Below are positions 13,601 through 56,719 of a stretch of DNA of 64,000 bases, piece after piece. Origin of the DNA: Candidatus Latescibacterota bacterium. GTDB lineage: Bacteria; Krumholzibacteriota; Krumholzibacteriia; WVZY01. The stretch is from contig CAWBQK010000013.1 in NCBI GenBank assembly GCA_963791045.1, positions 52,694 to 116,693 on the forward strand. Reading direction: 5' to 3'. Within the stretch, counting starts at the first letter, position 1, and each line of letters starts with the position of its first letter. Made by a program: the position numbers and the translations under genes. The notes beneath the pieces were generated by a model that was not told the DNA's origin, did no database searches, and was given only the letters and a program-made list of their open reading frames with translations.

Positions 13601-13976
13601 GGTCGGGCGGGTCAAGGAGTCCGAGCGCCTTTACCTTGTCCTGGCCGCCGCGTTCGTCCGGCGGACTCTGTTCAGCATCGCCGGCAACTCCGTTCGCTCC
13701 GCCAACGGAATAACTCGCCGTGCTGTCCCCGGGGGCAAAACCGACACCGGCGGCGCGCAAACGCATGGCGAGATCTTTGTCCTCTTCCCACGAAACCAGC
13801 GTGTAATACTCCGTCTCTTTGCCGCCCCATCCGTGGGCGAATGGCTCGAGGACGACCGTGGAATCGAGCCACGATGACGAAGCGTCGGGAACGTCCGGCC
13901 ACGCGGGCTCGGTAATCGACCGGTTTGCTTCACGCCACGGGACTTTGCGGCTCGTGCTTGTCTCCACGCTTCCCAA
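10653..13976 (-). CDS. large predicted outer-membrane beta-barrel protein (family unassigned), C-terminal ...NDYKF
   Basis: 1107-aa ORF with long alternating amphipathic beta-strands and a C-terminal aromatic residue (F), typical of OMPs. No signal peptide. The first start is TTG, only 12 codons after an in-frame TGA that ends the upstream OmpA-domain ORF. Start and independence are uncertain. Confidence 0.7.
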   Translation of the reverse strand: MGSVETSTSRKVPWREANRSITEPAWPDVPDASSSWLDSTVVLEPFAHGWGGKETEYYTLVSWEEDKDLAMRLRAAGVGFAPGDSTASYSVGGANGVAGDAEQSPPDERGGQDKVKALGLLDPPDRSVVIKRDQIEVTARVPLGSKYELFSGDELVPADRIGKKEIHLDERFEEITYYAVRIKNGWNTPRLEATPVNGAETIVDSVSVALAGKPVDIAIVPDRVILPADGQSRETILVELRDELGLPTINGLIATVIEGDSLVTNSDEDPDQRGLQISSENGQFLVHIRPSLTTGRRNIVVESHGYRATCVVAFVPAHRSMFMSGIIEGRLGAFSSSGSGDPLGLEDYYEGVRFKGESRFFIQGTSYAGINLTARIDTDKRYDDPLLQTFNPERQYTAYGDASELHYEAPAQGGNYIALEKGQSFLRYGDFRSPFTEGEFLTYKKSATGLNGAIVSGNAGVEAFVTKTDFFTVQDEIQGDGTSGFYFLSKSPVVENSVNLMLQVRDRYQSERILEIRPLTEHRDFTVNYFNGAILFKEPIPAFTRELNPVRIVAIYEAESSEEGDYLYGIRGALAQSGRFKLGVTAIAKDGHLSDYSLYGFDGGYSIGWLDLGGEFARSEDDIAGEGNAFRVMAGTKKLMGEHSVYLRKVDGNFLNPSFAGASRELYSEKAGFDSHLRISNDLSIDSHGFKHRNDNSGDRLGNVDVLGKYEGKTLMFGAGLRAATQDKESIESSSFLTMLDAGVRAGRSAELRTHWERNQGADIVDEYPDRLTSALSYRFLQRYRVVATHEYLSAHNRPATHQLLTGIEAQTGQNSKLYTKYAMNRTANDKRMGTIMGMKQTFPITWDLAAMFDIEGYRSFSSQVDDEYVAVKTGLNRIKRGKSLVEAQYEYRWQRASNRHVLKLNAGKEFDKGMSVIFKDAISISTFDDRETSLRMDGRLAGVYRPLVTPFRSLFLLRTEYDRYSPVDPEAIVWKLIASTDINVIPHNAHELRFKLAAKRVENYSTGISETSRNYLLLSQYVFRFARNWDVDLWVRFLGQVDVGTRQIGSGAELGYLFFDRVRIGAGYSVGGFEDRDLSENDAWQKGFGIRVQLILSDWMFNDYKF

Positions 13977-14012
13977 ATCCGCCCGCGTACTCGAACCACC
14001 ATACGAACTCGA

Positions 14013-16589: not shown

Positions 16590-16683
16590 GGATACAATCC
16601 GCCATATACGGGGCTGGCGGATGAATGGCTGAAGCCACTCATCCGCCTGCCTTGCTCAAATATTGTCCGTCTTGTCGGACGAA

Positions 16684-19386: not shown

Positions 19387-19396
19387 AGTCCTTACC

Positions 19397-19888
19397 TCAC
19401 TTGATTACCGTTCTGTACGTTACAGTGATGCCTTGTTTTGGCTGGACGGGCTCCGAGAGAGCCCAACGGAGATGCGTCACCATGTCCGGTGTTGCCTCCA
19501 CCAATTCTTCCTCGCCGTTCTCGTTCGTCTGTTTGACGAGAATCGGCCAGGCCTGGTACGTTTTTCCTCCATCGATGCTGTACTCCACGTCGCCCGTTTT
19601 GAGCTCGGTGGCTGACGGATGGACGAATTCGGTACCCAACGGGATTCCGTCCGTTATGAAAATATTCTGTATGGGCTGGTCGCCGGTGTTGGTGTAGGTC
19701 AACCGATATTCAATTGTATCGTTTGGCCTCGCGTTATCAGCGGGAAGAAAATCTTCCACTCCCTGGTCGGTAACCACCACCCGAAAAGCCTCGAGACTGC
19801 CCGCCAGATCCCCCCCGGCGGCAAATGCCATCGATGCGGTCAATCCGAGAACAAGCAGAAACACCGCAAAGAAGCGCTTCTCTATCAT
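19397..19888 (-). CDS. small (164 aa) secreted DUF11-domain protein, first gene of the surface operon
   Basis: ORF 19397..20101 trimmed to ATG 19888, which is preceded by the perfect RBS AAGGAGG. Signal peptide (FFAVFLLVLGLTASMAFAAG). TIEYRLTYTNTGDQPIQNIFITDGIPLGTEFV is DUF11. It lies 10 nt upstream of the next gene. Confidence 0.8.
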   Translation of the reverse strand: MIEKRFFAVFLLVLGLTASMAFAAGGDLAGSLEAFRVVVTDQGVEDFLPADNARPNDTIEYRLTYTNTGDQPIQNIFITDGIPLGTEFVHPSATELKTGDVEYSIDGGKTYQAWPILVKQTNENGEEELVEATPDMVTHLRWALSEPVQPKQGITVTYRTVIK

Positions 19889-20147
19889 AAAGAGCCTCCT
19901 TAAAAACTCCGGTCCGTGGATAATTTGAAACGTCGCGGCGAGGATCGATGACGTACCGAGGGGTAAGATTTCTTCCCCGCCTGTCCGGTCAGGGAGACAG
20001 ATAGCAAGGAGTGAACCACCTATGAGAAGTGTCAAGGAACGATGACACCTCATGAGAAATCCCGCGTCGCTGTGGGGCGACCGACGGCGGTTTCTCCCCA
20101 ATCACGGAACGACGGGGTAATTCAAGACGCAACACGAACGCGCAACC

Positions 20148-26797: not shown

Positions 26798-27910
26798 CTA
26801 CCCTAGTATGTCTTTGACCGCTGCAACGACCTCATCGACCATCTCGTCGGTGAGCTCGGGGTACATCGGAAGCGAAACGATTTCCTTGGCCGCTTTCTCC
26901 GCCACCGGAAACGCGCCTTCGCCAATCCCAAGGTCCTCGTAGGCCTTCTGCAGATGAAGCGGCACGGGATAATGGATCCCGGCGGCGATTCCGCGTTCGC
27001 CAAGCCCGTTGAGCAGCTTGTCCCGATCCGGCGTCCTTACAACATAGAGATGATAAACATGGTACCGTCCGGGGCCTTCCCTGACCGGACGAACCGGCCC
27101 GTCGGCAAATCCTTCGTCGTATCGTTTCGCGCGGCTGCGGCGGCTTTCGTTCCAACCGTCAATGTAACCCAGCTTGACATCGAGAACCGCCGCCTGGATT
27201 CCATCCAGACGGTAATTAAAACCCACGTGTGAATGTGTGTACTTGTCGAAACGGCCGTGATTGCCCAGGCGCCGCATAAAGTCCGCCTGGTCGGCATCAT
27301 CGGTCACGATCATACCCGCGTCCCCGTACGCGCCGAGATTTTTGCCCGGATAAAAACTGTAACAGGTGAGGTCACCCAAAAGAGCCCTCCGGCTCCCATT
27401 GAGATTCGCGCCGTGGGCCTGAGCGGCATCGGCAACGACCTTTATGGAGTGACGCGATGCGATATCCATAATCGCCTCCATGTCCGCGCTCTGGCCGTAG
27501 AGGTGGACGGGAACAATCGCCTTGGTCTTGTCCGTGATCGCCGCCTCGACTTGTTCCGGATCGATCGTCAGCGTATCGTCGGTTACGTCCACAAGAACCG
27601 GGCGCGCGCCGGTGTGTGAAATCGCCTCCGTTGTCGCAATAAACGTGTTGGTCGCCGTGATGACTTCATCGCCGGGGCCAATGCCGAGCGTGGTCAGCGC
27701 CAGGTGAAGCGCCGACGTACCGCTGCTCGTTCCGACGCCGTATCCGGCCTCGACATATTTCGCATAATTCTTCTCGAGAGTTTCCAGCTTCTTGCCACCG
27801 ACGAATGCCGTGTTCTCGATAATTTGCGCGATCGCGGGATCGACCTCGCTCTTAATGCTCTGGTACTGGGCTTTGAGATCGACAAACGGGATTCCCATGA
27901 CTGGTATCAC
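26798..27910 (-). CDS. DegT/DnrJ/EryC1/StrS-family PLP-dependent sugar aminotransferase
   Basis: Family-wide conservation (FVDLKAQY, GTSSGTSALHLAL, ...FYPGKNLGAYGDAG, HYPVPLHLQ). Confidence 0.9.
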   Translation of the reverse strand: MIPVMGIPFVDLKAQYQSIKSEVDPAIAQIIENTAFVGGKKLETLEKNYAKYVEAGYGVGTSSGTSALHLALTTLGIGPGDEVITATNTFIATTEAISHTGARPVLVDVTDDTLTIDPEQVEAAITDKTKAIVPVHLYGQSADMEAIMDIASRHSIKVVADAAQAHGANLNGSRRALLGDLTCYSFYPGKNLGAYGDAGMIVTDDADQADFMRRLGNHGRFDKYTHSHVGFNYRLDGIQAAVLDVKLGYIDGWNESRRSRAKRYDEGFADGPVRPVREGPGRYHVYHLYVVRTPDRDKLLNGLGERGIAAGIHYPVPLHLQKAYEDLGIGEGAFPVAEKAAKEIVSLPMYPELTDEMVDEVVAAVKDILG

Positions 27911-28127
27911 CTTTCGATATGAATTCTAATCTTTATGAAGGATGCATCCGGCGGAGGAACTTCACCACCAATCCACCCAAATATCAGCTATGCAGAATAC
28001 CACATATAACCTGACGCGGCAAGGCGTTACGTGCATAAAACGCGCCAGAAAGGTTTGACAACCGCGCAAAAACACCGATAGAATGGATTTTCGGTGAGGA
28101 TGGGAGCACACTCACGATTGGAGCCCA

Positions 28128-29300
28128 ATGTCCGCAGAACGAAGAACGATGCTGATATTGTTTGCCGTGGCGCTGGGATTGCGAGTTCTTTACGGCGCAT
28201 TTCTCGCCAACCAACCCGACCTCGTTCCCAGCCCCATAACTTCTGACCTGAGTTATGCGAAGGAAATAGCCACGGGAACTCGATGGTTCAACGAGCCGTT
28301 GTCACCGCGATCGCCAGGGTACCCCCTGGTTCTGGCGTCATTCTACGTCGTTTCGGCCAAGCATTTCTGGCTGATGATATTTCTCCAGGCAATCCTCGGG
28401 GCGTTGACGGTCGTTCTTCTCTACCGGATAGGGACGAGAATGCTGGGCCCGGTCTTCGCGGTGGTCGCCGCGCTCTGGTTCGCGTTCCATGTCTTTCATA
28501 TGCATGTCGGGCATTTCTTCCACAGGGACATCCTGAGTGTTTTCCTTTTGACGCTCCTCGTGTACATACTGACACGGCCATTCAAGCGGATGTGGTACGG
28601 ACTCATCGCTGGAATCATCTTCGCGGCGCTCGCGCATGTCGACCCGCAGTTTCTTCTCCTCCTCCCCGTGTTCGCAATTTTTATTCTGTTCAAATCACGG
28701 CACGGGTTTCTCAACATTCAGTATCTCTTTTTGTTTTTCTTCGCCGCGATCGTAATTTCGCTGCCGTGGACCATGAGGAACAACACCATCTACGGGCAAC
28801 CCATCCCCATTGGACTCGAAGCCAGAAAATACCTGCGACCGGCCAAATCCGTCGTGACAAATCCCGACAAGGGTTTGTCCGAACTCGAAAGCAAGATCAC
28901 GCGGGCGTCACGTGCCCGGCTCATCGAGAGAAACACCGTCGAGTTCTGGCGTTTCGCGAAATTCGAAGGGGACGTTGTGGAGTCCGCCGATTCAACGTTT
29001 GGCGGAGGGCTGGAGCCGGCGTGGTCGTTCCGGCACAATCTCGTCAGCATCCTCAATTACGGGATTCTGCTACCGTTCTTCGCCTTGGGGCTCGTGCTGG
29101 TCGTCCGCGACCGGAACAGAACCGGGCTCATGCTCGCTACGGTCACGGTCGCCTTTTTTGTCATGAGGATGTATCTCGGCGGGGATGAACGCATAAGGCT
29201 CGCCGTCGACCCATTTATTGTGATTCTGGCTTTCTACGGAATCTCATGGATGATCGGCACGCTGTGGAAACCCAGGTCGGCCGAAGACACCCAGGACTAG
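28128..29300 (+). CDS. GT-C fold membrane glycosyltransferase domain protein (ArnT/PMT-like), standalone homolog of the N-domains of the 47283/49439 paralogs
   Basis: Multi-TM. Motifs are shared with the TPR-fused paralogs (..LPWTMRNNTIYGQPIPI vs ILPVIIRNYVVGRDFVPI). Confidence 0.75.
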   Translation: MSAERRTMLILFAVALGLRVLYGAFLANQPDLVPSPITSDLSYAKEIATGTRWFNEPLSPRSPGYPLVLASFYVVSAKHFWLMIFLQAILGALTVVLLYRIGTRMLGPVFAVVAALWFAFHVFHMHVGHFFHRDILSVFLLTLLVYILTRPFKRMWYGLIAGIIFAALAHVDPQFLLLLPVFAIFILFKSRHGFLNIQYLFLFFFAAIVISLPWTMRNNTIYGQPIPIGLEARKYLRPAKSVVTNPDKGLSELESKITRASRARLIERNTVEFWRFAKFEGDVVESADSTFGGGLEPAWSFRHNLVSILNYGILLPFFALGLVLVVRDRNRTGLMLATVTVAFFVMRMYLGGDERIRLAVDPFIVILAFYGISWMIGTLWKPRSAEDTQD

Positions 29301-30854: not shown

Positions 30855-33146
30855 TCAAGGGTTTGTCTTCTTTGAACCCAACTCCTGGCGGACTCTCTGC
30901 AGGTTGCTCCGCGCCCGCCGGTTGTCCGGGTCGAGCTCGATTACTTCGAGGAATTCCCGCTCCGCATCCTCGAACCTGCCGACCGTCGCGTAGACCGAAC
31001 CGAGTGTCAGATGGCCGTTCGAGTATTTCGGCTCAACGCCGATGGCCATTTCACCATATTTTATCGATTCGTCGAAACGGCCCAGCTCCATGTTCATGAT
31101 CGCGAGGTTATTCATTGCATAAACATCATCCTTCTTCAGCGCCAGCGCTTTCTTGAAGGATTGTTCGGCAAGCGAAAATTGTTTCAGCCGCCCGTAACAC
31201 ACACCAATGTTATTCAACGCGCTCGGGAAGTTCGGATTCAACGCAAGGGCCTTTTTGAACTCCTCGATCGCCTCCGCATACTTGCCCTGCTCCTGGTATC
31301 TCTGCCCAAGATTGTTGTATGCATCCGGATTCTCGGGAGTGATGTACCCCAACGCTTCAAGCTTTTTGAGCGTTTCCTCATCCGCCGCGCCCGCGCCTTC
31401 CGGGACGTCACCCGTCGCGCGATTACGATTGAGTGTCGCGACGATCGTGGTATTCACCTCGTCGGCCAGCGCCGGTTCGAAAGCGTCGATAAGCACTTTT
31501 CCCGGCATGTCGGCGGCCTGCGGCAGACCCTCGAGTGCGAGAAAAGTGGGAAGAACATCGAGAACCGTTGCCCCATCGATCTTGTACCCCTTGCGAATCC
31601 CCGGGCCGTACATAGCGATGATACCGTTGAGCTGGTGCCAAAAAGCCGCGTGTCCGCCTCCAATCTGGCCACCGAGTTTTGGCCTGCCTTGTCCGCTTTT
31701 GAAACCATGGTCTGACGCGATCACCAAAACCGTCTCATCGTCACACATCTCGATAAACTCGCCGATGATCCCGTCCTGATAAATATAAGTCTGAAGCATC
31801 GCGTCTTTGTACTTTGCGAAGTCCGCCTCCGTGACCCATGACAGACGCGGCGGCGCGAAGTTCATAAAGAGATGGCCGACGGCGTCGCACCATTCGAAGT
31901 ACACCCCGAGAAAATCCGGCTGGTCGGCGGCAAGCAGATGTTTCGCGATGTTGTAATAAGACCTCGCCGACGCGTAGAGCATGATCATGTTGTTAACCGG
32001 GTTTTCAGGGTCGAACGCGACAACCTTGTTCTTGTCGAAGGTTTCGCGGTCGACATGGAGAAACCGTCTGAAATCCTCGTAATCTACGTCGGCGCTTTTG
32101 ACGATCAAATGGGACATCTCGTCGACCCTGTCGGCGGGCGACACGCTTCCCGGGGCGAGCTCGTCGCTTTCCCCCGCGTCCGCATAGGCGAGGTATCCGA
32201 CCCGGTCCGTGACCATCACGCCGTTGATCTCTTCGGCGGGATACGATGCCAGCCAACCGACGACATCCGCGCGGCGGCCGTGATCTCCAAAAATATTCCA
32301 GAGGGCATCGACCTTTCGGTACATGCGCGTGATCGGCATCCTCTTCCCCGTCTCTGGGTCGGTGACGGTGAAGTTGAGAATTCCGTGGTCCTCCGGAAGC
32401 TTCCCGGTTGCTATCGACGTCCAGATAAGAGGCGAGAGCAACGGTTCGATCGACCGTAGCCGGCCGGACGCGCCGCCTTCCAAAATCTTTTTGAAGTTGG
32501 GGAGAAATCCGGCCTCGATAAGCGGATCGATGATTTCCCAATCTCCGCCATCGACTCCCACAAAAATAATTTTTCTGAGCGGCTTTTCGGCAACGTTGAA
32601 AGTAACCCCTTCACCCGTCCCCGCAGTGACATCCCATGTGTCGACACGGAACCCATCCACGCTGATCCCAACTTTGCCGAGATCGGTTTTGATTTCGCGG
32701 AGCACGCCATTGACAAAATCATCCGGCGTTGCGATCGCCGGACCTGGGTATTCGGCAAGATTGATTTCAACGGATTCCCGGATCGACTCGGACAAACCCC
32801 GCTGCAAATCGGCTCCGTAACTTTTGTACAAGAACGCTCCCGAATCATCTTTGACGTTGAGTCGAAGTTCGAGCGCGACATTCGCTCGGCCGCCATCACG
32901 GGTCAAACCGGAATACGTCGACTCCGGAGGAAAACGCATTTCCACGGCACCCACTGGGTAAACGGCAAACGCCTGCGAAAACGGAAGGACAATATTAAAC
33001 CCGGGGCCATACTGCTTGGCCGCACCCGCCCCATCAATCCGGACCGCCTGATGCCCTTCGGGAACCCGTTTGACGACAAGCGCGGAGAGGATGGTAATCA
33101 CGGCGACCGCAACCAGCGAGAAAACAATGAATAAGCGTTTTTGCAT
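30855..33146 (-). CDS. alkaline-phosphatase-superfamily (type I phosphodiesterase/nucleotide pyrophosphatase-like) protein with C-terminal TPR repeats
   Basis: N-terminal TM anchor. AlkP-core motifs (IIFVGVDGGDWE..., ASDHGF). Five or more TPR repeats at the C-terminus (AYNNLGQRYQEQGKYAEAIEEFKKALALNP...). Confidence 0.8.
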   Translation of the reverse strand: MQKRLFIVFSLVAVAVITILSALVVKRVPEGHQAVRIDGAGAAKQYGPGFNIVLPFSQAFAVYPVGAVEMRFPPESTYSGLTRDGGRANVALELRLNVKDDSGAFLYKSYGADLQRGLSESIRESVEINLAEYPGPAIATPDDFVNGVLREIKTDLGKVGISVDGFRVDTWDVTAGTGEGVTFNVAEKPLRKIIFVGVDGGDWEIIDPLIEAGFLPNFKKILEGGASGRLRSIEPLLSPLIWTSIATGKLPEDHGILNFTVTDPETGKRMPITRMYRKVDALWNIFGDHGRRADVVGWLASYPAEEINGVMVTDRVGYLAYADAGESDELAPGSVSPADRVDEMSHLIVKSADVDYEDFRRFLHVDRETFDKNKVVAFDPENPVNNMIMLYASARSYYNIAKHLLAADQPDFLGVYFEWCDAVGHLFMNFAPPRLSWVTEADFAKYKDAMLQTYIYQDGIIGEFIEMCDDETVLVIASDHGFKSGQGRPKLGGQIGGGHAAFWHQLNGIIAMYGPGIRKGYKIDGATVLDVLPTFLALEGLPQAADMPGKVLIDAFEPALADEVNTTIVATLNRNRATGDVPEGAGAADEETLKKLEALGYITPENPDAYNNLGQRYQEQGKYAEAIEEFKKALALNPNFPSALNNIGVCYGRLKQFSLAEQSFKKALALKKDDVYAMNNLAIMNMELGRFDESIKYGEMAIGVEPKYSNGHLTLGSVYATVGRFEDAEREFLEVIELDPDNRRARSNLQRVRQELGSKKTNP

Positions 33147-33388
33147 TTACCCGTCTCCAGAGATGTGGTGTGAGGCCGCCAAAACCACAACCATGGTAGC
33201 GACTATAGGAGTCAGCGTCAAGGCGGGTACACCCCTTCGGGGCGCTTTTGTACTGGAACGACGCCGTTTTGTGGGATATAATGTGCTCCTCTCGGTCAAC
33301 CCAACACCCGGGGATGGTCATCGTCCAGGCGAGAGAATTGAGAAACTCATCAAAAGTTGAAACGCGGGTAAATCGACTGCTTTCCCGC

Positions 33389-34300
33389 ATGGCTTCCTCC
33401 AACTCGAAAAGGCCAATGCCCGAATCGCCATCATCGCTTCCAAGAGTCGCGGTCATCGTGCTCACGTGGAACGGCAAAACGTTGACGTTGGATTGTCTAA
33501 AATCACTTGCACGGCTCGAGTACGAAAATGTGGAAGTGATCGTCGTTGACAATGCGTCGACGGACGGAACCGTGGCGGCGGTGAGGGATTCATACCCGTC
33601 GCGTGTCACCGTCATCGAGAACAGCGACAACCTCGGTTTTTCGAGAGGCAACAATGTTGGCATTCAGTATGCGCTCCAAAACGGCGCCGACTACATACTG
33701 TTGCTCAACAACGATACGGAGGTGGATCCCGGTCTGATTGGCGGGATGTTGAACGAGATGACTTCAACCTCCGATATCGGAGTCGCCGGGGCCAAAATTT
33801 ACTACGCGTCCCCGGCCGACCAAATCTGGTTCGCCGGCGGGGAGGTATTTCTCTCACGCGGAACAACGAGACATATCGGAATCCGCGAAAGGGACACGGG
33901 ACAATTTGACATCGCTCACGACGTGGACTACGTCACCGGCTGCGCGCTGATGACAAAACGCGAGGTCTTGGAAGAGATTGGAGCCCTCGACCCCACTTTC
34001 GTGGCCTACTACGAGGATGTGGATTTTTGCATGAGGGCCCGGCGGGCGGGGTACCGCGTTGTCTACGCCCCGGCGGGCAAGGTCTGGCACAAGATATCCT
34101 CGAGCACCGGCGGTCAGGCGAGCGCCGCAAAAATATCGAGAAAACTGAGCAGCACGCTAATTTTCTTCAGGCGCTACGCTTCATGGTACCACTGGCTGAC
34201 GATACCGTTTTTCTTTGGCGCCGACGTAATAAGGATCTTATTTCTAATCTTTGCGGGGCGGATCCGCGACACGGGAGCAACCGTTAAAAGTGACAACTAA
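33389..34300 (+). CDS. family 2 glycosyltransferase
   Basis: ORF 33248..34300 trimmed to Met at 33389. VAVIVLTWNG...VVDNASTDGT...DNLGFSRGNNVG are GT2 hallmarks. Confidence 0.85.
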   Translation: MASSNSKRPMPESPSSLPRVAVIVLTWNGKTLTLDCLKSLARLEYENVEVIVVDNASTDGTVAAVRDSYPSRVTVIENSDNLGFSRGNNVGIQYALQNGADYILLLNNDTEVDPGLIGGMLNEMTSTSDIGVAGAKIYYASPADQIWFAGGEVFLSRGTTRHIGIRERDTGQFDIAHDVDYVTGCALMTKREVLEEIGALDPTFVAYYEDVDFCMRARRAGYRVVYAPAGKVWHKISSSTGGQASAAKISRKLSSTLIFFRRYASWYHWLTIPFFFGADVIRILFLIFAGRIRDTGATVKSDN

Positions 34301-45217: not shown

Positions 45218-46966
45218 ACGTCCGCCACTTCGACTTTCTCGGATTTGTTTTCTTTGAATTCTCCGCCCCCAGAAGCTTCGTCAAGAAATACCTGCTCGGT
45301 CTCCAGAGGCAACGCCACGGTAAAGGTGCTCCCGTGGCCGTATTTGCTTTCTACCCAAAGACGACCCTTGTGAAGCTCCACGATATGCTTGGCGAGAGCC
45401 AGACCTATCCCAAGCCCGCCCCATCGACGGGATCGAAGACCCATCCACCTGCCTGAAAGTCTCGAAGATGTGGGGGATGTCTTCTTCGGGAATACCCATA
45501 CCCGTATCCGTCACCTGTATCCTGATTTCCTTCCCCGTGAAAACTGTGTCGACACGAACGGCGCCGTCGCGACCGGTGAACTTGATCGCGTTCTGGATGA
45601 GACACGAAATCACCTGGACGATCTGGTTGTTGTCGAGATATGTCACTGGGACTTTTGTGTCGGGCGTGAAAGTCATTTCGATGTTCTTGGCGGCGGATCG
45701 TTTCTCCATTTTTGGCCACACCGAGTTGATCACGTCGTGGATGTGCGACAGGGACATGCTTAGCAGCTGACCCGACACCTCGAGCTTGGAAAGATCGAGG
45801 AGGTTGTTGATCAACTGGAGCAGACTCGCCCCATTCTCGACGATGACATCGAGAAACTGCTGTTTACTATCTTCGGGGAGTTTTGGATCCTTGAGGGACT
45901 CCGAATACGCGATGATGATGCTCAGCGGCGTTCGCAGTTCGTGACTTATGTTCGCCAGGAACTCGGTTTTCATTTTGTCGACGTCCGTGAGCTTTTTGTT
46001 GATCTCCTGAAGGTTCTTGTTCTGACAGATGATCTGCTGTTCGAGCATTCGTCTCTGTGACACATTGTGAACGATCATCTGGACGAAAAGCCCGTCCTTC
46101 AGCCGGATAAGATTGGCGTTGATATCGACAAATACGAGGTTGCCGTCGTGGTCGACCATCTTGCGGTCGACAAAGGTCATCGATCCCTGGCTGAGCAGAT
46201 TGATAAAGTCGCGCCGGACCTGGTACTTGCTCCTCCTCGGAAAACAACTCGAAGTACGACTGGTTGATGAGCTGGTCGCGCGTGTATCCCAGAACGCTTT
46301 CGCACTTCCTGTTGACTTCCGAGAGTCTCGCCGAACCCTTGTCGACGAGCATGATGAGATCGTTCGCGTTTTCGAGGAGTGTCTTGTAGCGCCGGCTGAG
46401 AACCTCGGCTTCGAGACGAAGCTGCGTATGGGCGATCGCCCGGCTGGCGAACTGCGCGCAGTGTTCGATGAACCTCAACATCGGTTTTCGAGAAAGCGTT
46501 TACCGTGTAACTGCCGATGTTGAGCGTCCCGATAAGCTTCCCCGCGCGAGACCAATGGAACAACCATGTCCGCGCTGAGGGGTTCCTCGCTGATAACTTC
46601 TTTGAAACGATCGCATGTCTGCGATGTTCGGGCGATGGACGGACTCCTGATGGATAACAACCCACCCAAGAACCGAGCCCTCGTCGACGGGAATCAAACG
46701 CCCCTCGCCGAACTTCTCGGCGGCGCTGTCCCCTTTGTGAATGCCCTGTGGACCAGCGTTTTTTTGTCGGGATTGAGAATCGCCACACTGGATACGTCGA
46801 AATCAACGAGACGTGACACTTCCTTGGTGATGGCGGCGAGGATGCTTTCAAGACCCGTGGCGGCGAGCATCGCGTTGGCGATTTCGACGAACGCCAGGAC
46901 GTGCTCCGTCTTGGACATGCCGTTGTCTTTTTGAATCGTGTCGTTGCTCATGTGTCGAAGTTGCAC
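45214..46966 (-). pseudogene. GAF-PAS-HisKA-HATPase sensor histidine kinase disrupted by at least six frameshifts
   Basis: Domain pieces lie in successive frames: GAF (46694..46966; 46500..46697; 46475..46669), PAS (45867..46481), HisKA + HATPase N-part (45281..46180, FLANISHELRTPL), G2 box (45214..45444, [19 protein letters not shown]). Confidence 0.6.
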
Positions 46967-47282
46967 GTATTTTGCCCGACAACGCGCGATATTGCATTCG
47001 AGAAGAAAAGAAACCAGCCCGTAACTTGTTTATATTCGGTGCATTACGGAATACATTACCCCGGCATTGCAGGAAATGTTCCATCCCCGGGCGAAGCAGC
47101 CAATTCGCTTTGCAGAAACCAGGATCAGGCCGCGACGCGCTCTTCCCCGGAACAAGCGCGCCGTCGACGTTGTTAAAGTTTTTGATTGGAAGTGTAAACT
47201 ACGTTAGAATAGCCACTTGTCAGACGCCCCAAACCCAGCAGTGGCGGTCGAGGGCGAGGCCCCAAACCACGAATGAGTTTCG

Positions 47283-49430
47283 ATGGCCAAAAAAGCCAAG
47301 AAGAAAACAGCGCAAACGGACGCGGTCCGAAAAGCGACCACGCGCGAAGTTGATTTCGACAGACTGATGTCACGCTCCTCGATAGGAAAAAGCGAGATCA
47401 AGTACGTCGCCGCCGTGTTCGTGATCGCGCTCGCCGTGCGTCTTGTCTATTTCTTTTTGAACAAGGCAAACAACCCGCTCTTTTATCACCCGATACTCGA
47501 TGCGTTGTTTCACCACGAGTGGGCGGGGGAAATACTCGCCGGCAATTTCTGGGGAGACGAGGTTTTTTTCCGGGCACCCTTCTACCCCTATGCGCTTGCC
47601 TTCTTCTATAAGCTAAGCGGCTCCAGCATCGCCTTCGCCACTTTTGTTCAACACATTACAGGATCGTTCAGCGCCGCACTCCTCTACGCGCTCTCGCGCC
47701 AGTACTTCTCCGTCCGGGTGTCACTGCTCGCCGCGGTTCTGGCGGCGCTGTATTGGCCTCTGATTTATTTCGAAGGCGATCTATTGATCGTCACCTTTGT
47801 TGTCTTCTTTGACATCTCATTACTGCTCTGCCTTGCCGTCGCGATCCGCAAACAATCGACGCCTTTGTATGTCGCCGCGGGGTTGATTCTCGGGCTATCC
47901 GCCATCGCGCGGCCAAGCATTTTGATCTTCGTGCCGGTCATCCCCATTGTTTTTCATGTGTCCTCGATGATTCAACAGCGCGGTCAATCACGCACATGGC
48001 AGAAACAAACGGTTCTGCTCCTGTCCGGCGCTATGGTCATTATTCTTCCGGTCATCATCCGAAACTATGTCGTCGGACGTGATTTTGTGCCCATCGCGTC
48101 ACAGGGCGGGGTCAACTTTTATATCGGCAACAACCCACAATCGAATGGGAGTCTCGCGATGGTGCCCGGCGCGCGGGCCGATATGTACGGCACCTATCAC
48201 GGCGCCATCGAGCTTGCCGAGCGGGACAGGGGCCGTCGTCTCAAACCCTCGGAAGTCTCCAGTTACTACACGGGGAAAGCGCTCGGTTTTTTCGCGGAAG
48301 CGCCGGGCGACGCTATGGCCCTTACATCCAAGAAGCTGTATATGTTCTGGGCCGGAGTTGAAAGATCTAACAACAAGTATATCCAGTTCTTCTGGGAACG
48401 ATACGGTCTCGGGAAGATACCCCTTCCCGGCTTCTGGCTGATCGGACCCTTTGCGCTCCTCGGAGGCGTTCTGCTATTTCGGAGACGGCGCGAAATGTCG
48501 CTCCTCTATCTTTTTGTGTTGAGCTATATGGTTGGCGTCGTGGCGTTCTTTGTAAACGCGAGATTCCGGCTCCCCGTCACTCCCGTTCTTATCTTGTTCG
48601 CATCCTTCGCCATTTTTTATCTGGTGGAGTGCGTCCGCGCAAGGAGCGAGAGCTTCCTTCGAGCGCTGCTTGTTCTCGCGGTGTGTGTTTTTATTGTCGA
48701 CTATGATTACATCGCGTTTCGCGGTGTTAGGGCCATCGATGAGGCAATTTCGCATTACGAACTGGCCAACGCTTTCCTCAAGATGGATAACAAGGACGGG
48801 GCGCTGCATCATTTCGAGCAGGCCAGGGAGATACAGGAGAAATATCCGACGCGTGCGTATCTTCAAATCTCAGGAACCGTCGATTTCAATCTTGGCTCGA
48901 TCTATTTTGAAAACGGACTCTATTCTCGGGCCGTTCAGGCGTTGGAACGTGTCCCCGACACCGACCCGCGTGTCTATCAGGCAAAGACCCTCCTTGCCGA
49001 CTGTTATGTCAAAGGTGGCCGCTATGCCGACGCGATAGACGTATACGTCCGCATCCTCCAGGCGGACCCGAACCATGCGCGAAGCCTCTTTGGTCTCGGC
49101 ATCGCCTACCGGATGACCGGCGATCTCGACCGCTCGCAGCAGGCCCTGGAAGAGGTACTGCGAAAGCACAAACCACCCGACGGTAGTGTAAACCTCGAAC
49201 TCGCTCGAACGCTCCAGGCCCGCGGCGACACCGAGGGAGCCATCCGCAACTACCAGATTGCGTCGGCCAGCAATCTTCAACGGCGCGACGCCTACCTCGA
49301 ACTCGCCCGGCTCCACAAGACACAGGGAGACAGGGAGAAAGCGATCGAATACTACGAAAGGCTTCGTACGGCGTATCCGAACGACAGATCCATCCAGATG
49401 GAAATCAACGCGCTCCGTTCGAACAATTAG
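47283..49430 (+). CDS. GT-C fold glycosyltransferase (ArnT/PMT-like) fused to C-terminal TPR repeats, TMTC-like architecture
   Basis: Ten or more TM helices with GGVNFYIGNN and YYP.LD..FHHEWA motifs. Six or more TPR repeats at the C-terminus. Tandem paralog of 49439. Confidence 0.85.
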   Translation: MAKKAKKKTAQTDAVRKATTREVDFDRLMSRSSIGKSEIKYVAAVFVIALAVRLVYFFLNKANNPLFYHPILDALFHHEWAGEILAGNFWGDEVFFRAPFYPYALAFFYKLSGSSIAFATFVQHITGSFSAALLYALSRQYFSVRVSLLAAVLAALYWPLIYFEGDLLIVTFVVFFDISLLLCLAVAIRKQSTPLYVAAGLILGLSAIARPSILIFVPVIPIVFHVSSMIQQRGQSRTWQKQTVLLLSGAMVIILPVIIRNYVVGRDFVPIASQGGVNFYIGNNPQSNGSLAMVPGARADMYGTYHGAIELAERDRGRRLKPSEVSSYYTGKALGFFAEAPGDAMALTSKKLYMFWAGVERSNNKYIQFFWERYGLGKIPLPGFWLIGPFALLGGVLLFRRRREMSLLYLFVLSYMVGVVAFFVNARFRLPVTPVLILFASFAIFYLVECVRARSESFLRALLVLAVCVFIVDYDYIAFRGVRAIDEAISHYELANAFLKMDNKDGALHHFEQAREIQEKYPTRAYLQISGTVDFNLGSIYFENGLYSRAVQALERVPDTDPRVYQAKTLLADCYVKGGRYADAIDVYVRILQADPNHARSLFGLGIAYRMTGDLDRSQQALEEVLRKHKPPDGSVNLELARTLQARGDTEGAIRNYQIASASNLQRRDAYLELARLHKTQGDREKAIEYYERLRTAYPNDRSIQMEINALRSNN

Positions 49431-49438
49431 CAAAAGAC

Positions 49439-51544
49439 ATGGCGAAACACTCCAAAAAGAAGCCCGTAAAAGTACCCGACCAGGCCCCATTGACCGCGCA
49501 TTTCGCCGCAACCGAAACGTGGAACAAATTGGACTGGCGGAACGCGGCCATTGTTCTTGCGGTTGCCGTCGCCATACGCCTCGTTTTTTTCTTTCTCAAC
49601 AGGCATAACAACCCGCTCTTCTACTACCCCATCATGGACGGCAAGTACCATCTCGAGTGGGCACAGGAGATTCTTTCCGGCAACTTCTGGGGCAACGGCG
49701 TATTCTTCCGGGCACCGCTGTACCCTTACTTTCTCGCGTTTCTCTACAAGATCGGCGGGACACATATTGGCTTCGTCATTTTTTGCCAGCATTTGATCGG
49801 CGCCGCAAGTGCGGGGCTTGTTTATCTCGTAGCCCGCTTGTTCTTCCGCCCCGGAATTGCGCTACTCGCCGGGCTGTTCGCCGCGCTTTACTGGCCGTTT
49901 CTGTATTTTGAAGCCGACCTGCTCATAGTGACGTTGATCGTATTCTTCGACCTTCTCAGTCTGTATTTTCTTATTCTCGCGCTTAAGACGTCGCGAGCCG
50001 GTTATTTTATCGCCGCCGGGCTCATCCTCGGATTGTCGGCGGTCGCGCGCCCAAATATTCTCGTGTTGATCCCCGCTTTGCCGTTTGTGTTCTGGTTGTG
50101 GCCGGACGGTCGAAACAAAGACACGGCCACACGCCGGAAAGTATGCTTCCGCCAAACCGTTTTTGTTTGTGCCGCCGCGGCGCTGATGATCTTGCCGGTG
50201 CTCGTCAGGAACTGGGTCGTCGGCCGCGACATTGTTCCGATCGCGTCGCAGGGCGGTGTGAACTTCTATATTGGCAACAACCCCGACGCCGATGGGCGCA
50301 CGGCGATAGTCCCGGGCACAAGATGGGACTGGTGGGGTGGCTACGAAGATGCGATCCGGATGGCGGAAAAAGAAGCGGGCCGCAAACTCAAACCGTCCGA
50401 GGTATCCAATCACTACTTTCGAAAAGGCGCCGGGTTCGTATTTACACAGCCGGATCGTTCCATCCCGCTCCTCGGCAAAAAGCTGCACCTGTTCTGGGCC
50501 GCGGGGGAACGATCGAACAACAAATATATCTATTTCTTCTGGCACCAGGGGGGAATGGGAAAGGTCCCGCTGCCCGGGTTCTGGCTCATCGCACCCCTGG
50601 GACTCCTCGGAGGGGTTCTCTTGTGGCCGCGCCGTCGTGAACTCTCTCTCTTCTACCTGTTCACCGTGACTTACATGGCTGGGGTGATCGCGTTCTTTGT
50701 CAACGCGAGGTTCAGACTGCCTATAGTTCCCATACTCATCATGTTTGCCGCCTATGCGTGTTTCCATCTGTGGCATGTCGCCCGCCACAGAAGATCCGAA
50801 CTCTGGAAACCGCTGGTTGTTTTTGCGTTGTGCGTTTTCGCCATCGATTTTGACCTCGTCGGTTTCGGTGAAAACAAAATCAATGAGGACGCACTCTCGC
50901 ACTACACTCTTGGAAACGCCTATCTCAACCGCGGTGACACCAAGAACGCCATCGCCGAATATGAAGAAGCGCTCGACCGATATAAGCAATACGGAAGAAA
51001 AGGTTTTCTCGTTGTCGCTCGCAATGTCGAGTACAACCTGGGGCGACTGTACTGGTCGGACAAGCGCTGTGAAGAGGCAATACCGCACCTCGAACGAGTG
51101 GGAGGAAACGACCAGTTCGCCGTCGTTGCGCTCGAGATGCTCGCCGATTGTTACGAAAGCGAAAAACGTTACAACAATGCAATCGACGCCTATGAATTGA
51201 TCCTGAGAGCCGTACCCAACAACGACAAGGCTCGTTTCGGTCTGGCGAGAACTCACCGTTTGATGGGAAATCTGGAAGAGGCGGAAACGCTATTCCGATC
51301 GATCGTGTCCGACGGAACGGGGCAAAATGCGGAAGCCTACATGGAACTGGCCGCAACACTCGAAGCTCTTGAGAAATGGGATGAAGCGGCGGCCGCCTAT
51401 GAAAACGCCGCGAGAAGCCCGGCATATCGCGTCCGCGCCCTTATAGGCGCGGCGAGGATGTACGCTCGAGGGGGGAGACGGGGAAAAGGCCTCCGGCTGT
51501 CTCGACCGCGCAAAGAGTTTCGCCCCCGACGATCCTGCCGTTGA
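49439..51544 (+). CDS. second TMTC-like GT-C+TPR glycosyltransferase paralog (3' end frameshifted in a G6 homopolymer; true stop probably 51577)
   Basis: Collinear similarity to 47283..49430. After MYARGG the called frame becomes R-rich junk. Frame +1 gives GDGEKASGCLDRAKSFAPDDPAVDKAIDALRADG*, which aligns residue-for-residue with the paralog's C-terminus. Confidence 0.8.
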   Translation: MAKHSKKKPVKVPDQAPLTAHFAATETWNKLDWRNAAIVLAVAVAIRLVFFFLNRHNNPLFYYPIMDGKYHLEWAQEILSGNFWGNGVFFRAPLYPYFLAFLYKIGGTHIGFVIFCQHLIGAASAGLVYLVARLFFRPGIALLAGLFAALYWPFLYFEADLLIVTLIVFFDLLSLYFLILALKTSRAGYFIAAGLILGLSAVARPNILVLIPALPFVFWLWPDGRNKDTATRRKVCFRQTVFVCAAAALMILPVLVRNWVVGRDIVPIASQGGVNFYIGNNPDADGRTAIVPGTRWDWWGGYEDAIRMAEKEAGRKLKPSEVSNHYFRKGAGFVFTQPDRSIPLLGKKLHLFWAAGERSNNKYIYFFWHQGGMGKVPLPGFWLIAPLGLLGGVLLWPRRRELSLFYLFTVTYMAGVIAFFVNARFRLPIVPILIMFAAYACFHLWHVARHRRSELWKPLVVFALCVFAIDFDLVGFGENKINEDALSHYTLGNAYLNRGDTKNAIAEYEEALDRYKQYGRKGFLVVARNVEYNLGRLYWSDKRCEEAIPHLERVGGNDQFAVVALEMLADCYESEKRYNNAIDAYELILRAVPNNDKARFGLARTHRLMGNLEEAETLFRSIVSDGTGQNAEAYMELAATLEALEKWDEAAAAYENAARSPAYRVRALIGAARMYARGGRRGKGLRLSRPRKEFRPRRSCR

Positions 51545-51583
51545 CAAGGCAATCGACGCGCTCCGCGCGGACGGCTGAGATCC

Positions 51584-53631: not shown

Positions 53632-54850
53632 CTATTCGATCACAATAACTTCTGTGGGTATACTACCGGTCGATGACACGCGCGACACCAGGTAAAGGCC
53701 GGGAACCCCGTCTATCACGGATTCGATGTCACGCCGTGTCCGCCGACCGGAATCAGCCGAAAATCTAGCAAGGACTCGGCCTCCGCATGACAACTCGGTC
53801 GTACGCCCATCGATGGCCGGGAGACTATCAACCACAATCTCGCCGACGAGACGGTTGGCAATGCTCACGTTCTCTCCACCCGGGACATTCGCGCCCCTTT
53901 CCGGCCGGTCCGGATTCGCTCCCAGACTCAGACTCGCCGACACCACAAGTCTTGTGATCTCGATGAGAAACCGGGTGGTAAGGATCTCCGGTGTGTCGAG
54001 AACCGTGCAGTGATACGGGTTGTGATCGTAACCTTCCCATATCGAGACGGCGGGCAGACCTTTCCGCCAAAAAGAAACGTGATCGCTATTCCCCGAAGCC
54101 ACGATGGTGGTATCGACGACGAGACGCGTCGAGCGCACCGCACACTCGATAACTTCAACAGCCAGGGGAATCGATTGCGAGTCGGCGAACAACACCGCGT
54201 CCATCGGTCCATATTCGTCGTACCCAACCATGTCGACATTGATGACTCCGCGCAGATCCGGGTGATCATCCAGCGCGTTTTCCGCAAACGCCTTCGACCC
54301 GAGCAGGCTGTCCTCTTCCCCACCAAAGAATGCAAGCGTCACGGAGGGCCGACGACCGTCCACCGACAAAACCCGAGCCGTCTCGAGAAGAACAGCCACG
54401 CCACTCGCATTGTCATCGGCGCCGGGGGCCGGTTCCCGCCAATCCTCGCCACGGCTGTCGTAGTGGGCGCAAACCAGAATAGTGTTGCGCTCGAACCCCG
54501 AGCCGCTCAAATCGGCAAGAACGTTTGTAACAACTACCGAGTTGCCCAGCCGATCTTTTACATTAACGTAGTGGTATTCGACGGGAATTCCGAGACCAGT
54601 CAACCGGCGCGTAATATACGACACTGTCGAGGCCGCCCCCTGCGATGTAAATCGTCTCTCCGTGCGCCGCGAGAAACTCGACCGTCGCGAGAAGACTGTC
54701 ACCGGAGATATTGGTACAAACCGCCTCGTGGTCACCGTGGCCATTCGGGCCGTCGCTCTCGCGAACAGGATCAACAACGACAAAAAGACCCAGCACAACC
54801 AGTGCGAGCACGCAGACATGCAGGATATGTAGCGGTAATCTGGCAGCCAC
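53632..54850 (-). CDS. M28-family zinc aminopeptidase (apparent single-nt frameshift near 54645 within a G5 run)
   Basis: M28 motifs (DDNASGVAVLLE, NVDMVGY, FFGGEE). The signal-peptide N-terminus (MAARLPLHILHVCVLALVVLGLFVVV) lies in ORF 54563..54850. It joins ORF 53632..54819 if one G is removed from CAGGGGGCGG. Confidence 0.75.
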
Positions 54851-54988
54851 GAACCGTCCTCCGTTCGGGATTCAAGATTTCACACATCATAGAAACGGCG
54901 GGGTTGGCCGTAAAGCTAATTTTGCCATGAAAGCGCCCAACGCTCTTATGCGGGCACGTCCACCGAGCCCGGGAACCGACCGTCTCTT

Positions 54989-55065: not shown

Positions 55066-56719
55066 ATGCGGTATCGAGGAGGACGACAAATGAGCCGGTT
55101 ATATACAAATTCGATTGCGGTCTTTTTAATCCTGGGCGTGCTACTTTCACTGTCGTCCTGCGGTGGGGACACCGACGTCCAAAAGGCCGCGCCTACCGGC
55201 ACTCCCATAGTGGGCGGAGTCGTCTACCGCCATCTCGAATCAGACTGCAAAACATTGAACTGGGTGCTTTATAACACCATATACGAAAATCACGTTCTCC
55301 GCCATCTTTACGACTATCTTCTCGACTACGATGAGAACCTCGACATTGTACCCGTGCTCGCAAAGAACTATGACGTCAGCAAAGACGACTTCGTATCACG
55401 GTAACCTTGAGAGACTCTCTCTTCTGGCACGACGGTGTCCCGATAACCTCGCAGACGTCAAATTCACCGTCGACAAGATCCTTGATCCCACGATACCCGC
55501 GGTCAACAAAGAGGGCTGGTTCTCGCGTCTCGACAACGTCGAGATCGTTGACGACCCAACATCGAGTTCATATGGAAGGAGCCATATGGGCCCTAGTCTC
55601 CACGCACTCACCCAGCTCGCCCCAATTCCGGAGCATATCTATGGCAAGGGTAATTTCCGTGAACACCCCGCCAACCGGCACCGGTGGGCAGCGGCGCTTT
55701 CAAATTCGAAGAATGGCGAACGGGCCAAATCATCAGCGTCGTACGAAACGAAGACTACTATGGACCTCCGGCCCATCTCGATCGCGTCGTTTTCAAGATC
55801 ATCCCGGACAGGATCCGTGGCGCTCGGCGCGCTCAAGACCGGCGAACTGGATGAAATGCGGGTCAACCAGCCCCAGTGGGAAACCAAACCGATGGCGGCG
55901 ACTTCCCGCAAAAAGTTCGACAAGAATCACTATTATGTGCCTCTATACAATTACATCGCCTGGAATTGCCGATCGATTTGGTTCCGAGACAAACGGGTGC
56001 GCCTGGCGATGACGATGCTTTTTGATCGGGAGACGATCAACGAGGAGATTTATTCGGGTCACGCCAAGATCGTCACCGGGCCGTTTTATATAAACTCATG
56101 GGCCTACGACTCATCGATCGAACCGGTGCCATACAACCCCGATGGGGCTCGACGTATCCTCGATGAAGCGGGTTGGACGGACAGCGACAGCGACGGCATT
56201 CGCGACAAGGACGGGATAAAATTCGAATTCGATTTTTCGTTATCAGCGGAAGCAGGACGGCGCGACGGTTCGCGGAACTCCTTCAGGAAGCATGCCCGAA
56301 AGTGGGAATCGTAGTCAATATCAGGCGACTAGAGGGAGCGACGTTTTTTGACAAAATGTTCAAAGGCGAGTACGACGGGACGGCGTCTCGGATGGCGCCT
56401 GGACAACGATCCCGACATGTATGACACCTTTCATTCAACGCAGGTTCCCCCGATCGGCATCAACCATACGTTCTACAGCAACCCCGAAGTTGACCGTCTC
56501 CTCGAACAGGGACGCGTCGAGTTCGACCACGACAGGAGAAAACAGATTTATCACCGTGTTCACCGGTTGATTCACGATGACCAACCTTACACGTTTATAA
56601 ATTCGGTCCCCGAAAAAAGACCGATCAGCAAACGAATCGAGAACGTAACGTTTTCACCCGACGGACCGTTCAATTTTTACCCCGGCGCCAATTACTGGTA
56701 CACCAAAGACGAAGAATAA
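55066..56719 (+). pseudogene. ABC transporter substrate-binding lipoprotein, family 5 (Opp/Dpp-type), broken by at least five frameshifts
   Basis: Lipoprotein signal (LSLSSCGG). SBP_bac_5 segments lie in alternating frames across ORFs 55066..55404, 55407..56012, 55331..56314, 56173..56424 and 56348..56719. Confidence 0.65.

Follow-up and report, generated by a model that had tools for sequence, protein, structure and literature searches.

A tandem pair of GT-C glycosyltransferases with C-terminal tetratricopeptide repeats and predicted periplasmic active sites in a Candidatus Latescibacterota genome

Two paralogous glycosyltransferase genes

The 64,000-nucleotide (nt) stretch of Candidatus Latescibacterota DNA analysed here (contig CAWBQK010000013.1, positions 52,694 to 116,693; hereafter the window) carries two adjacent, co-oriented genes, designated A and B, each encoding a membrane-embedded glycosyltransferase with C-terminal tetratricopeptide repeats (TPRs). 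Gene A (47283..49430, forward strand) encodes a 715 amino acid (aa) protein with an exact match in the protein databases, its assignment as a PMT_2 GT-C glycosyltransferase with a C-terminal TPR domain coming from the open reading frame (ORF), Pfam matches and an AlphaFold (AF2) model. Gene B, a paralogue with the same architecture, begins 8 nt downstream and occupies 49439..51578 on the same strand in a corrected reading frame (49439-51544 and 701 aa as assembled). BLASTP aligns the two proteins collinearly over 649 aa with 47% identity and 66% positives (E = 0), within the range of ~40-50% estimated by eye when the pair was first noticed in the sequence (the original prediction).

That prediction also described an ArnT/PMT-like multi-spanning GT-C domain and a C-terminal TPR array in both proteins, and both descriptions hold. 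Matches to Pfam family PMT_2 (PF13231) at ~aa 92-258 score 39.8 bits in gene A and 48.4 bits in gene B, above the gathering threshold of 26.1 bits, which is also exceeded by a third protein from the window (gene C, discussed below) and by all 14 family members examined. Several Pfam TPR families match both proteins at ~aa 485-705 (TPR_1/2/8/16/19 in gene A). A and B are paralogous, share the same domain order and belong, with very high confidence, to the inner-membrane glycosyltransferases of the GT-C superfamily.

Both paralogues, and the family consensus, open with a lysine-rich tail, MAKxxKKK (encoded at 47283-47310 and 49439-49466), followed by a poorly conserved linker. Upstream of gene A is a sigma-70-like promoter match (TTGATT-17-TAGAAT, 47182..47210, forward strand), which is weak evidence only: the promoter scan was at chance level, with two sites found against 2.3 expected.

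Topology and TPR domain

The model and hydropathy together place 11 transmembrane (TM) helices in the membrane (catalytic) domain of gene A (aa 38-478, 47394..48716, forward strand), at residues 38-63, 116-139, 144-157, 168-190, 193-209, 211-230, 238-265, 384-401, 406-422, 426-452 and 457-472, with two juxtamembrane helices (73-85 and 100-112) in the first loop. The N-terminal tail of 37 residues carries 11 lysines or arginines. Basic residues flank the short loops joining TM2-3, TM4-5, TM6-7, TM8-9 and TM10-11, and the alternate loops are acidic or neutral. From the 11 hydrophobic helices, the basic tail and this positive-inside pattern of loops, the TPR domain is predicted to lie in the periplasm, together with loop 1 and the 118-residue loop between TM7 and TM8 (aa 266-383, 48078..48431, forward strand), the N-terminus being cytoplasmic.

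The TPR domain of gene A (aa 481-715, 48723..49427, forward strand) comprises ~6 repeats: in the AF2 model, 13 helices between residues 481 and 712 correspond to ~6 TPRs plus a capping helix, and Foldseek matches this part of the model to the TPR superhelices of CTPR and OGT proteins. In NCBIfam, neither protein matches an equivalog family. The weak matches of the TPR region, to PgaA, BcsC, LapB, PilW and PrsT, are all far below the family cut-offs, and apart from such sub-threshold TPR families there is only a weak match of gene B to LA_3751/LA_3752. Searches of the PDB with the full-length proteins likewise return TPR proteins only.

Fold and conserved residues

The AF2 model of full-length gene A has a predicted local distance difference test (pLDDT) score of 85.2 and a predicted template modelling (pTM) score of 0.77; for the membrane domain modelled alone, these are 76.5 and 0.82. 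Protein transferases (AglB, Pmt4 and STT3B) and the lipid A transferase ArnT together make up the closest structural neighbours of the membrane domain, their scores being almost the same. ALG12, GPI-MT1, AftA, ALG3, Pmt2, PglB and others score lower, and the Pmt1-Pmt2 complex (6p2r) is also among the matches. At the level of the predicted model, these comparisons establish a GT-C fold of the GT-C_A type. Because the protein transferases and ArnT nearly tie, fold similarity cannot tell what class of acceptor is used. The original prediction had proposed that a best homology to transferases with lipid acceptors would count against protein glycosylation; with AglB, Pmt4 and STT3B on one side and ArnT on the other scoring almost alike, that comparison does not discriminate. 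No match to the membrane domain was obtained in a single-sequence search of the PDB, and a search with a 14-sequence membrane-domain profile retrieved no GT-C entry, only a chance match to a lipocalin (E 1.7).

An alignment of 40 sequences that includes both paralogue clades identifies a set of invariant residues: D73, H77, R210-P211, R260-N261, G276-N284 (within the motif GGVNFYIGNN), E313, E360-R361-N363 and, with the exception of A426, the whole of F422-P431 (FFVNARFRLP), so that both R427 and R429 are retained. D73, kept in all 40 homologues, is encoded at 47499..47501 (forward strand) and starts the first juxtamembrane helix of periplasmic loop 1. Characterised GT-C enzymes have an essential aspartate in this loop (D55 in ArnT, D77 in Pmt1 and D52 in TMTC1; PMC7801869). 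Judged by position rather than by superposition, D73 is probably the equivalent of this residue and is our candidate catalytic aspartate. The original prediction asked for a check on a conserved DE or DD motif in the first extracytoplasmic loop; the first aspartate is indeed invariant but the second position is not conserved, D73 being followed by A in gene A and its counterpart by G in gene B.

Within the family, conservation is highest in periplasmic loop 1 and the TM7-TM8 loop, with column means of 0.77 and 0.74, respectively. The latter carries the motifs GGVNFYIGNN and ERSNNKY and has no match in Pfam, DUF1736 included.

Duplication and divergence of the pair

In a neighbour-joining tree, family proteins form distinct A and B clades, and many contigs hold one member of each. 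In the complete Latescibacterota genome CP070677.1 the gene order is ATP synthase beta/epsilon, GAF-PAS kinase (reverse strand), A (718 aa), B (712 aa), Ppx/GppA, RluA (reverse strand), a hypothetical protein, an M28 peptidase and SBP_bac_5, and the window matches this order except for Ppx/GppA. An outgroup genome has one copy at the same locus, indicating that the tandem duplication arose within the lineage and was kept. The duplication behind A and B is an old one and has been conserved.

The two halves of the proteins have diverged to very different extents. Comparing A with B in the window, identity is 55% in the membrane domain and 60% in the TM7-TM8 loop but only 29-31% in the TPR domain. 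When each is compared with its own orthologue, the corresponding values are 69-70%, 78-83% and 50-64%. The catalytic core has stayed constant, whilst the two TPR domains have become distinct and each is now conserved in a form of its own, a pattern that fits the same chemistry being applied to different partners. As the catalytic residues are the same and the TPR domains strongly diverged, A and B probably serve different sets of acceptors.

The reading frame of gene B

As assembled, gene B ends in ~25 residues (…GGRRGKGLRLSRPRKEFRPRRSCR) that seem to be out of frame. In a three-frame translation, the frame running from 51402 instead reads …GGDGEKASGCLDRAKSFAPDDPAVDKAIDALRADG*, with its stop codon at 51576-51578, and is collinear with the C-termini of gene A and of gene B orthologues. 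Comparison with the orthologues places the switch of frame at a run of six G residues (51470..51475, forward strand), where a 1-nt indel would account for it; a tblastn search with the 712 aa B orthologue from the complete genome shows 63% identity, with residues 1-675 uninterrupted in a single frame. Since the corrected frame stops at 51576-51578, the end at 51577 originally given for the pair was essentially right. The frameshift is probably an assembly error.

Gene B is not the only interrupted gene in this part of the window. Divergent from gene A, the gene for a GAF-PAS-HisKA-HATPase histidine kinase (45262..46951, reverse strand) is split over four frame segments (-1, -3, -1 and -2) and has suffered at least three frameshifts relative to an intact 585 aa orthologue; kinases of 585 and 579 aa are intact in the two loci inspected in detail (L001 and L003). 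That several frameshifts fall within a few kilobases suggests indel errors in the assembly as the simplest explanation for the breaks in both gene B and the kinase, the less likely alternative being that these are pseudogenes. Further downstream, the SBP_bac_5 gene (55331-56314 and 54010-54930) also seems truncated, its 327 aa ORF covering profile positions 160-288 of 368 when the relative's gene exceeds 553 aa, and may represent a further frameshift.

Genomic context

Genes A and B are flanked in the window by housekeeping genes, their neighbours being ATP synthase, the histidine kinase and RluA. A census of 116 ORFs flanking family genes in related loci found only three recurring types: GAF-PAS kinases (upstream in 17 loci), Ppx/GppA phosphatases (11) and PMT_2 paralogues (8). 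Neither a GT2 donor synthase nor a GtrA-type flippase nor an obvious substrate recurred amongst the 116. The eight paralogues suggest that the family is prone to tandem expansion. In the relatives (L001, L003 and the 11 flanking ORFs), a co-oriented Ppx/GppA phosphatase gene comes next after the glycosyltransferase gene or genes, at times with an overlap of a few bases. In the window, gene B adjoins RluA with no Ppx/GppA gene between them.

A GT2 gene elsewhere in the window (33248-34300) was considered as a possible maker of the sugar donor and dropped, because NCBIfam does not identify it as a polyprenyl-phosphate sugar synthase of the GtrB, ArnC or DPM1 type. The window also contains a run of five large envelope-protein genes (6638-20101, reverse strand; 1343, 1107, 858, 900 and 234 aa) with DUF11, DUF7507, CARDB and NPCBM_assoc/FixG_C Ig-like domains and one OmpA domain; the 1107 aa protein has no Pfam match. 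The DUF11 proteins had been put forward as plausible substrates of A and B but this is unsupported: they are encoded 28-40 kb away, with no conserved linkage, and in CP070677.1 no called gene with a DUF11 match lies in either of the 17-18 kb loci that hold the pair and gene C. Naming them as substrates is speculation.

Gene C and its neighbours

A third, TPR-less homologue had been noted at 28128-29300 and its description is borne out. Gene C (28128..29300, forward strand) encodes a 390 aa PMT_2 GT-C protein (39.9 bits) with no TPR match, a distant paralogue that is 25% identical to the N-terminal membrane part of gene A (E = 3e-11). Its family is lineage-restricted, with 54 matches, and has an acidic residue (D or E) in loop 1 in 16 of 18 members. 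In CP070677.1, gene C lies 2.3 Mb from the A/B pair, so A, B and C do not form one system.

Divergent from gene C is a gene for a DegT/ArnB/PseC-like sugar aminotransferase (26798..27910, reverse strand; Pfam DegT_DnrJ_EryC1, 1.2e-117), with NCBIfam matches to PseC and ArnB that both fall below the cut-off. The unit made up of gene C and the divergent aminotransferase gene, with an M1 peptidase gene upstream (26798-29300 in the window), recurs in CP070677.1 (L002, 6625-9176). This partnership hints at transfer of an amino-sugar, possibly to a lipid or glycan acceptor, in an ArnB/ArnT-like system. The placing of gene C in an envelope-glycan cluster is true in a loose sense: the aminotransferase is adjacent, but the GT2 and RmlD genes lie 4-6 kb off, behind iPGM and a phosphodiesterase-TPR gene. 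The product of the latter (30855-33146, reverse strand; 763 aa) is unusual in joining three parts: an SPFH/Band 7 domain at the N-terminus, a domain like those of type I phosphodiesterases/alkaline phosphatases, and TPRs at the C-terminus.

Size and distribution of the family

At E<=1e-30 the membrane-domain profile retrieves 6,145 representatives of clusters made at 50% identity; with the threshold relaxed to E<=1e-3 the number is 36,059. Lengths of 550-830 aa predominate among the top 150 matches, corresponding to a membrane domain plus a C-terminal extension. Amongst GTDB species representatives, 508 loci encode a relative with the motif GVNFYIGN or Y[MS]xGV[VI][AV]FFV. These belong to Latescibacterota, Krumholzibacteriia, Phycisphaerae and other Planctomycetota (with several copies per genome), Zixibacteria, Eisenbacteria, WOR-3, Ignavibacteria, Chitinivibrionia, Armatimonadota and others. 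The best named relatives come from metagenome-assembled genomes of Candidatus Latescibacterota and Krumholzibacteriota/Krumholzibacteriia, and relatives are annotated only as "tetratricopeptide repeat protein", "glycosyltransferase family 39 protein" or "L-Ara4N transferase-like" (L-Ara4N, 4-amino-4-deoxy-L-arabinose).

Outside Latescibacterota, many loci have a same-strand ORF of 540-700 aa directly beside the family gene, Phycisphaerae/Planctomycetota loci L036, L043, L062, L070, L077, L078 and L080 being examples, and some genomes have at least three dispersed family copies. A literature search on bacterial TMTC-like proteins, GT39-plus-TPR proteins and Latescibacteria glycosylation found no study of the A/B family. 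The family is large, already catalogued and experimentally untouched, and the window adds one more pair to it.

Proposed function and alternatives

How might the two proteins act? In the explanation that we favour, A and B would be produced from one transcript, given the 8-nt gap, as a pair of inner-membrane GT-C transferases. The active site would face the periplasm and be built from loop 1 (Asp73 and His77), short loops contributing Glu164/Asp166, Arg210 and Arg427/Arg429, and the long TM7-TM8 loop. By analogy with characterised GT-C enzymes, the sugar would be taken from a polyprenyl-phosphate-linked donor that has been flipped to the periplasmic face, and passed to a periplasmic acceptor, most likely chosen by the TPR superhelix of ~6 repeats. 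That acceptor would most probably be a secreted or envelope protein, by analogy with TMTC1-4 and TfpW (see below), and the two paralogues, with the same chemistry, would probably act on different acceptor sets. The topology, the lipid-linked donor, the protein acceptor and the division of labour are the parts of this scheme that we infer. Taken as a whole, a periplasm-facing pair of GT-C enzymes using lipid-linked sugars, with TPRs that select different and most probably protein acceptors, has in our view an even chance of being correct. Considered on its own, the protein acceptor is a tentative proposal, argued from analogy, that we would put just short of evens.

A number of observations weigh against this explanation. 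The TMTC-specific motifs and DUF1736 are missing from the A/B family. ArnT, with its lipid A acceptor, scores level with the protein transferases as a structural neighbour, and bacterial envelope TPRs also scaffold polysaccharide export, as the matches of PgaA, BcsC and PilW type recall. No polyprenyl-phosphate sugar synthase, flippase or candidate substrate gene is linked to A and B. In CP070631.1, the two family copies were found ~2 Mb apart, so that tandem adjacency is not obligatory. Finally, gene B is frameshifted in the present assembly.

The alternative that survives best is a non-protein acceptor, such as lipid A or the core of lipopolysaccharide, peptidoglycan, a glycolipid or an exopolysaccharide, with the TPR domain acting as a scaffold that docks the enzyme to the envelope or export machinery. 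We consider this possible though doubtful. JGI names many homologues 'L-Ara4N transferase-like', and the TPR region has the weak matches to polysaccharide and envelope scaffolds (PgaA, BcsC, LapB, PilW and PrsT) described above, but these fall far under the family cut-offs. For gene C only, a pairing of the ArnB-ArnT kind is brought to mind by the DegT/ArnB-like aminotransferase gene that is conserved in divergent orientation next to it, but beside A and B themselves there are no arn-like or polysaccharide genes, either in the window or in relatives. ArnT, moreover, spans the membrane 13 times and ends in another kind of domain (PMC7801869), and a single scaffold would account less readily than different protein partners for the divergence of the TPR domains between otherwise conserved paralogues.

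A second possibility is that A and B form an obligate heterodimer, in the manner of yeast Pmt1-Pmt2 or human POMT1-POMT2, rather than two independent enzymes. The tandem arrangement with 8-nt spacing is conserved across Latescibacterota and Krumholzibacteriia, all invariant residues are kept in both paralogues, PMTs act as dimers (PMC7759382), and the Pmt1-Pmt2 complex 6p2r is one of the structural matches. Single-copy relatives at the same locus, the unlinked copies of CP070631.1 and the several dispersed copies in Phycisphaerae nevertheless make obligate pairing improbable. As for gene B, or both genes, being in decay as pseudogenes or serving as TPR membrane scaffolds without catalytic activity, the loss of the last TPR of gene B to a frameshift in the assembly and the broken neighbouring kinase gene speak for it, but a 1-nt indel in a G6 run with the downstream frame intact and conserved to the orthologous stop, 63% identity to the orthologue over 675 residues without other interruption, the invariance of all the catalytic-site residues and the clustering of several frameshifts within a few kilobases, which suggests assembly indel errors, render it highly improbable.

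Returning to the periplasm-facing pair, a more ambitious form of the same explanation would make A and B the bacterial counterpart of the TMTC/PMT enzymes: a conserved two-enzyme, possibly heterodimeric, machine for periplasmic protein O-glycosylation. Its two TPR domains would recognise different classes of folded envelope or surface proteins, and the pathway would be widespread in Latescibacterota, Planctomycetota, Zixibacteria and uncultured phyla related to them. At present this seems unlikely. If proteins do prove to be glycosylated, the family, thousands strong in uncultured environmental phyla, would represent a general route of TPR-guided periplasmic O-glycosylation parallel to the TMTCs of animals, and a possible source of new enzymes for glyco-engineering. 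Of use now are a corrected model of gene B, a predicted 11-TM topology with periplasmic TPRs, a list of invariant residues, an old duplication with diverged TPRs and the finding that this is not a TMTC orthologue.

Comparison with known systems

The oligosaccharyltransferases (OSTs) AglB, PglB and STT3 have a C-terminal periplasmic domain that is absent from A and B. Pfam STT3 gives marginal matches to two of 14 family members (E ~0.003), and the 'DWWGGY' sequence in loop 4 of clade B, which is not kept in clade A, lies in a different domain from that of the WWDYG motif of OSTs.

With the protein O-mannosyltransferases of the PMT/POMT type (GT39, including actinobacterial Pmt), A and B share 11 TM helices, an extra domain at the TM7-TM8 region and the occurrence of paired paralogues (Pmt1-Pmt2), and some homologues are named 'GT39 family protein' by NCBI. 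They differ in lacking the DE motif and MIR domain of GT39 PMTs and in having C-terminal TPRs instead. Pfam PMT (PF02366) matches only one of the 14 family members and is absent from A, B and C among the matches listed.

ArnT belongs to the Pfam family PMT_2. An undecaprenyl-phosphate-L-Ara4N:lipid A transferase (GT83), it resembles A and B in having the loop 1 aspartate, an acidic residue in loop 2 and a basic residue in loop 3 in equivalent places (PMC7801869), but its 13 TM helices, small C-terminal periplasmic domain and lipid A acceptor contrast with the 11 TM helices and TPRs of A and B. There is no arn operon (ArnB/C/A/D/E/F) around A and B, and neither single-sequence nor profile searches give a match to solved ArnT.

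In layout, A and B resemble TMTC1-4 (CAZy GT105), the eukaryotic cadherin O-mannosyltransferases of the endoplasmic reticulum. TMTCs have 11 TM helices and an N-terminus in the cytoplasm; the TM7-TM8 loop, which corresponds to the DUF1736 segment, and the C-terminal TPRs lie on the luminal side (PMC7801869). The GT-C domain, the 11 TM helices, the long TM7-TM8 loop, the extracytoplasmic C-terminal TPRs and the loop 1 aspartate are all found in A and B, with the reservation that the topology of the latter is predicted. The similarity does not extend to sequence motifs. In TMTCs these are DD, SHKSYRP, KET(Q)xxT, DW and ERxxY, and DUF1736 is significant in every TMTC, with E<1e-30 for the human proteins (PMC7801869). 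In the A/B family, the loop 1 DD is D-[A/G/S/P], and SHKSYRP, KET(Q)xxT, DW and ERxxY are replaced by FFRAP, R210-P211, GGVNFYIGNN/ERSNNKY and NARFR. By inspection rather than by profile-profile alignment, none of these four TMTC motifs is found in the family consensus or the invariant lists. DUF1736 gives no match in any of 14 family membrane domains even at E<=10, nor is it among the matches listed at E<=0.1 for the full-length proteins (the best 25 of 33 and the best 25 of 28 families). TMTCs take mannose from a dolichol-linked donor, Dol-P-Man, for transfer to cadherin-type domains, whereas a donor on an undecaprenyl-type lipid would be expected for A and B as they are bacterial. The TMTC architecture originally ascribed to the pair therefore stands as far as the 11 TM helices, the inside N-terminus, the long TM7-TM8 loop and the extracytoplasmic TPRs are concerned, but membership of the TMTC family does not, since DUF1736 and the TMTC motifs are both absent.

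A bacterial parallel is provided by Pseudomonas aeruginosa TfpW, the group IV pilin D-arabinofuranosyltransferase, which combines 11 predicted TM helices with periplasmic TPRs and O-arabinofuranosylates pilin (bioRxiv 10.1101/2020.04.19.049825). TfpW has a DDX motif, and tfpW lies directly downstream of the gene for its substrate, pilA, and near genes for the D-arabinofuranose (D-Araf) donor (bioRxiv 10.1101/2020.04.19.049825). Unlike tfpW, A and B have no adjoining pilin or donor genes, here or in relatives. The likeness is one of predicted layout, a GT-C domain followed by periplasmic TPRs. Taken together, these comparisons set A and B apart from the TMTC, GT39 PMT and ArnT families as such, yet the layout of the two proteins is TMTC-like.

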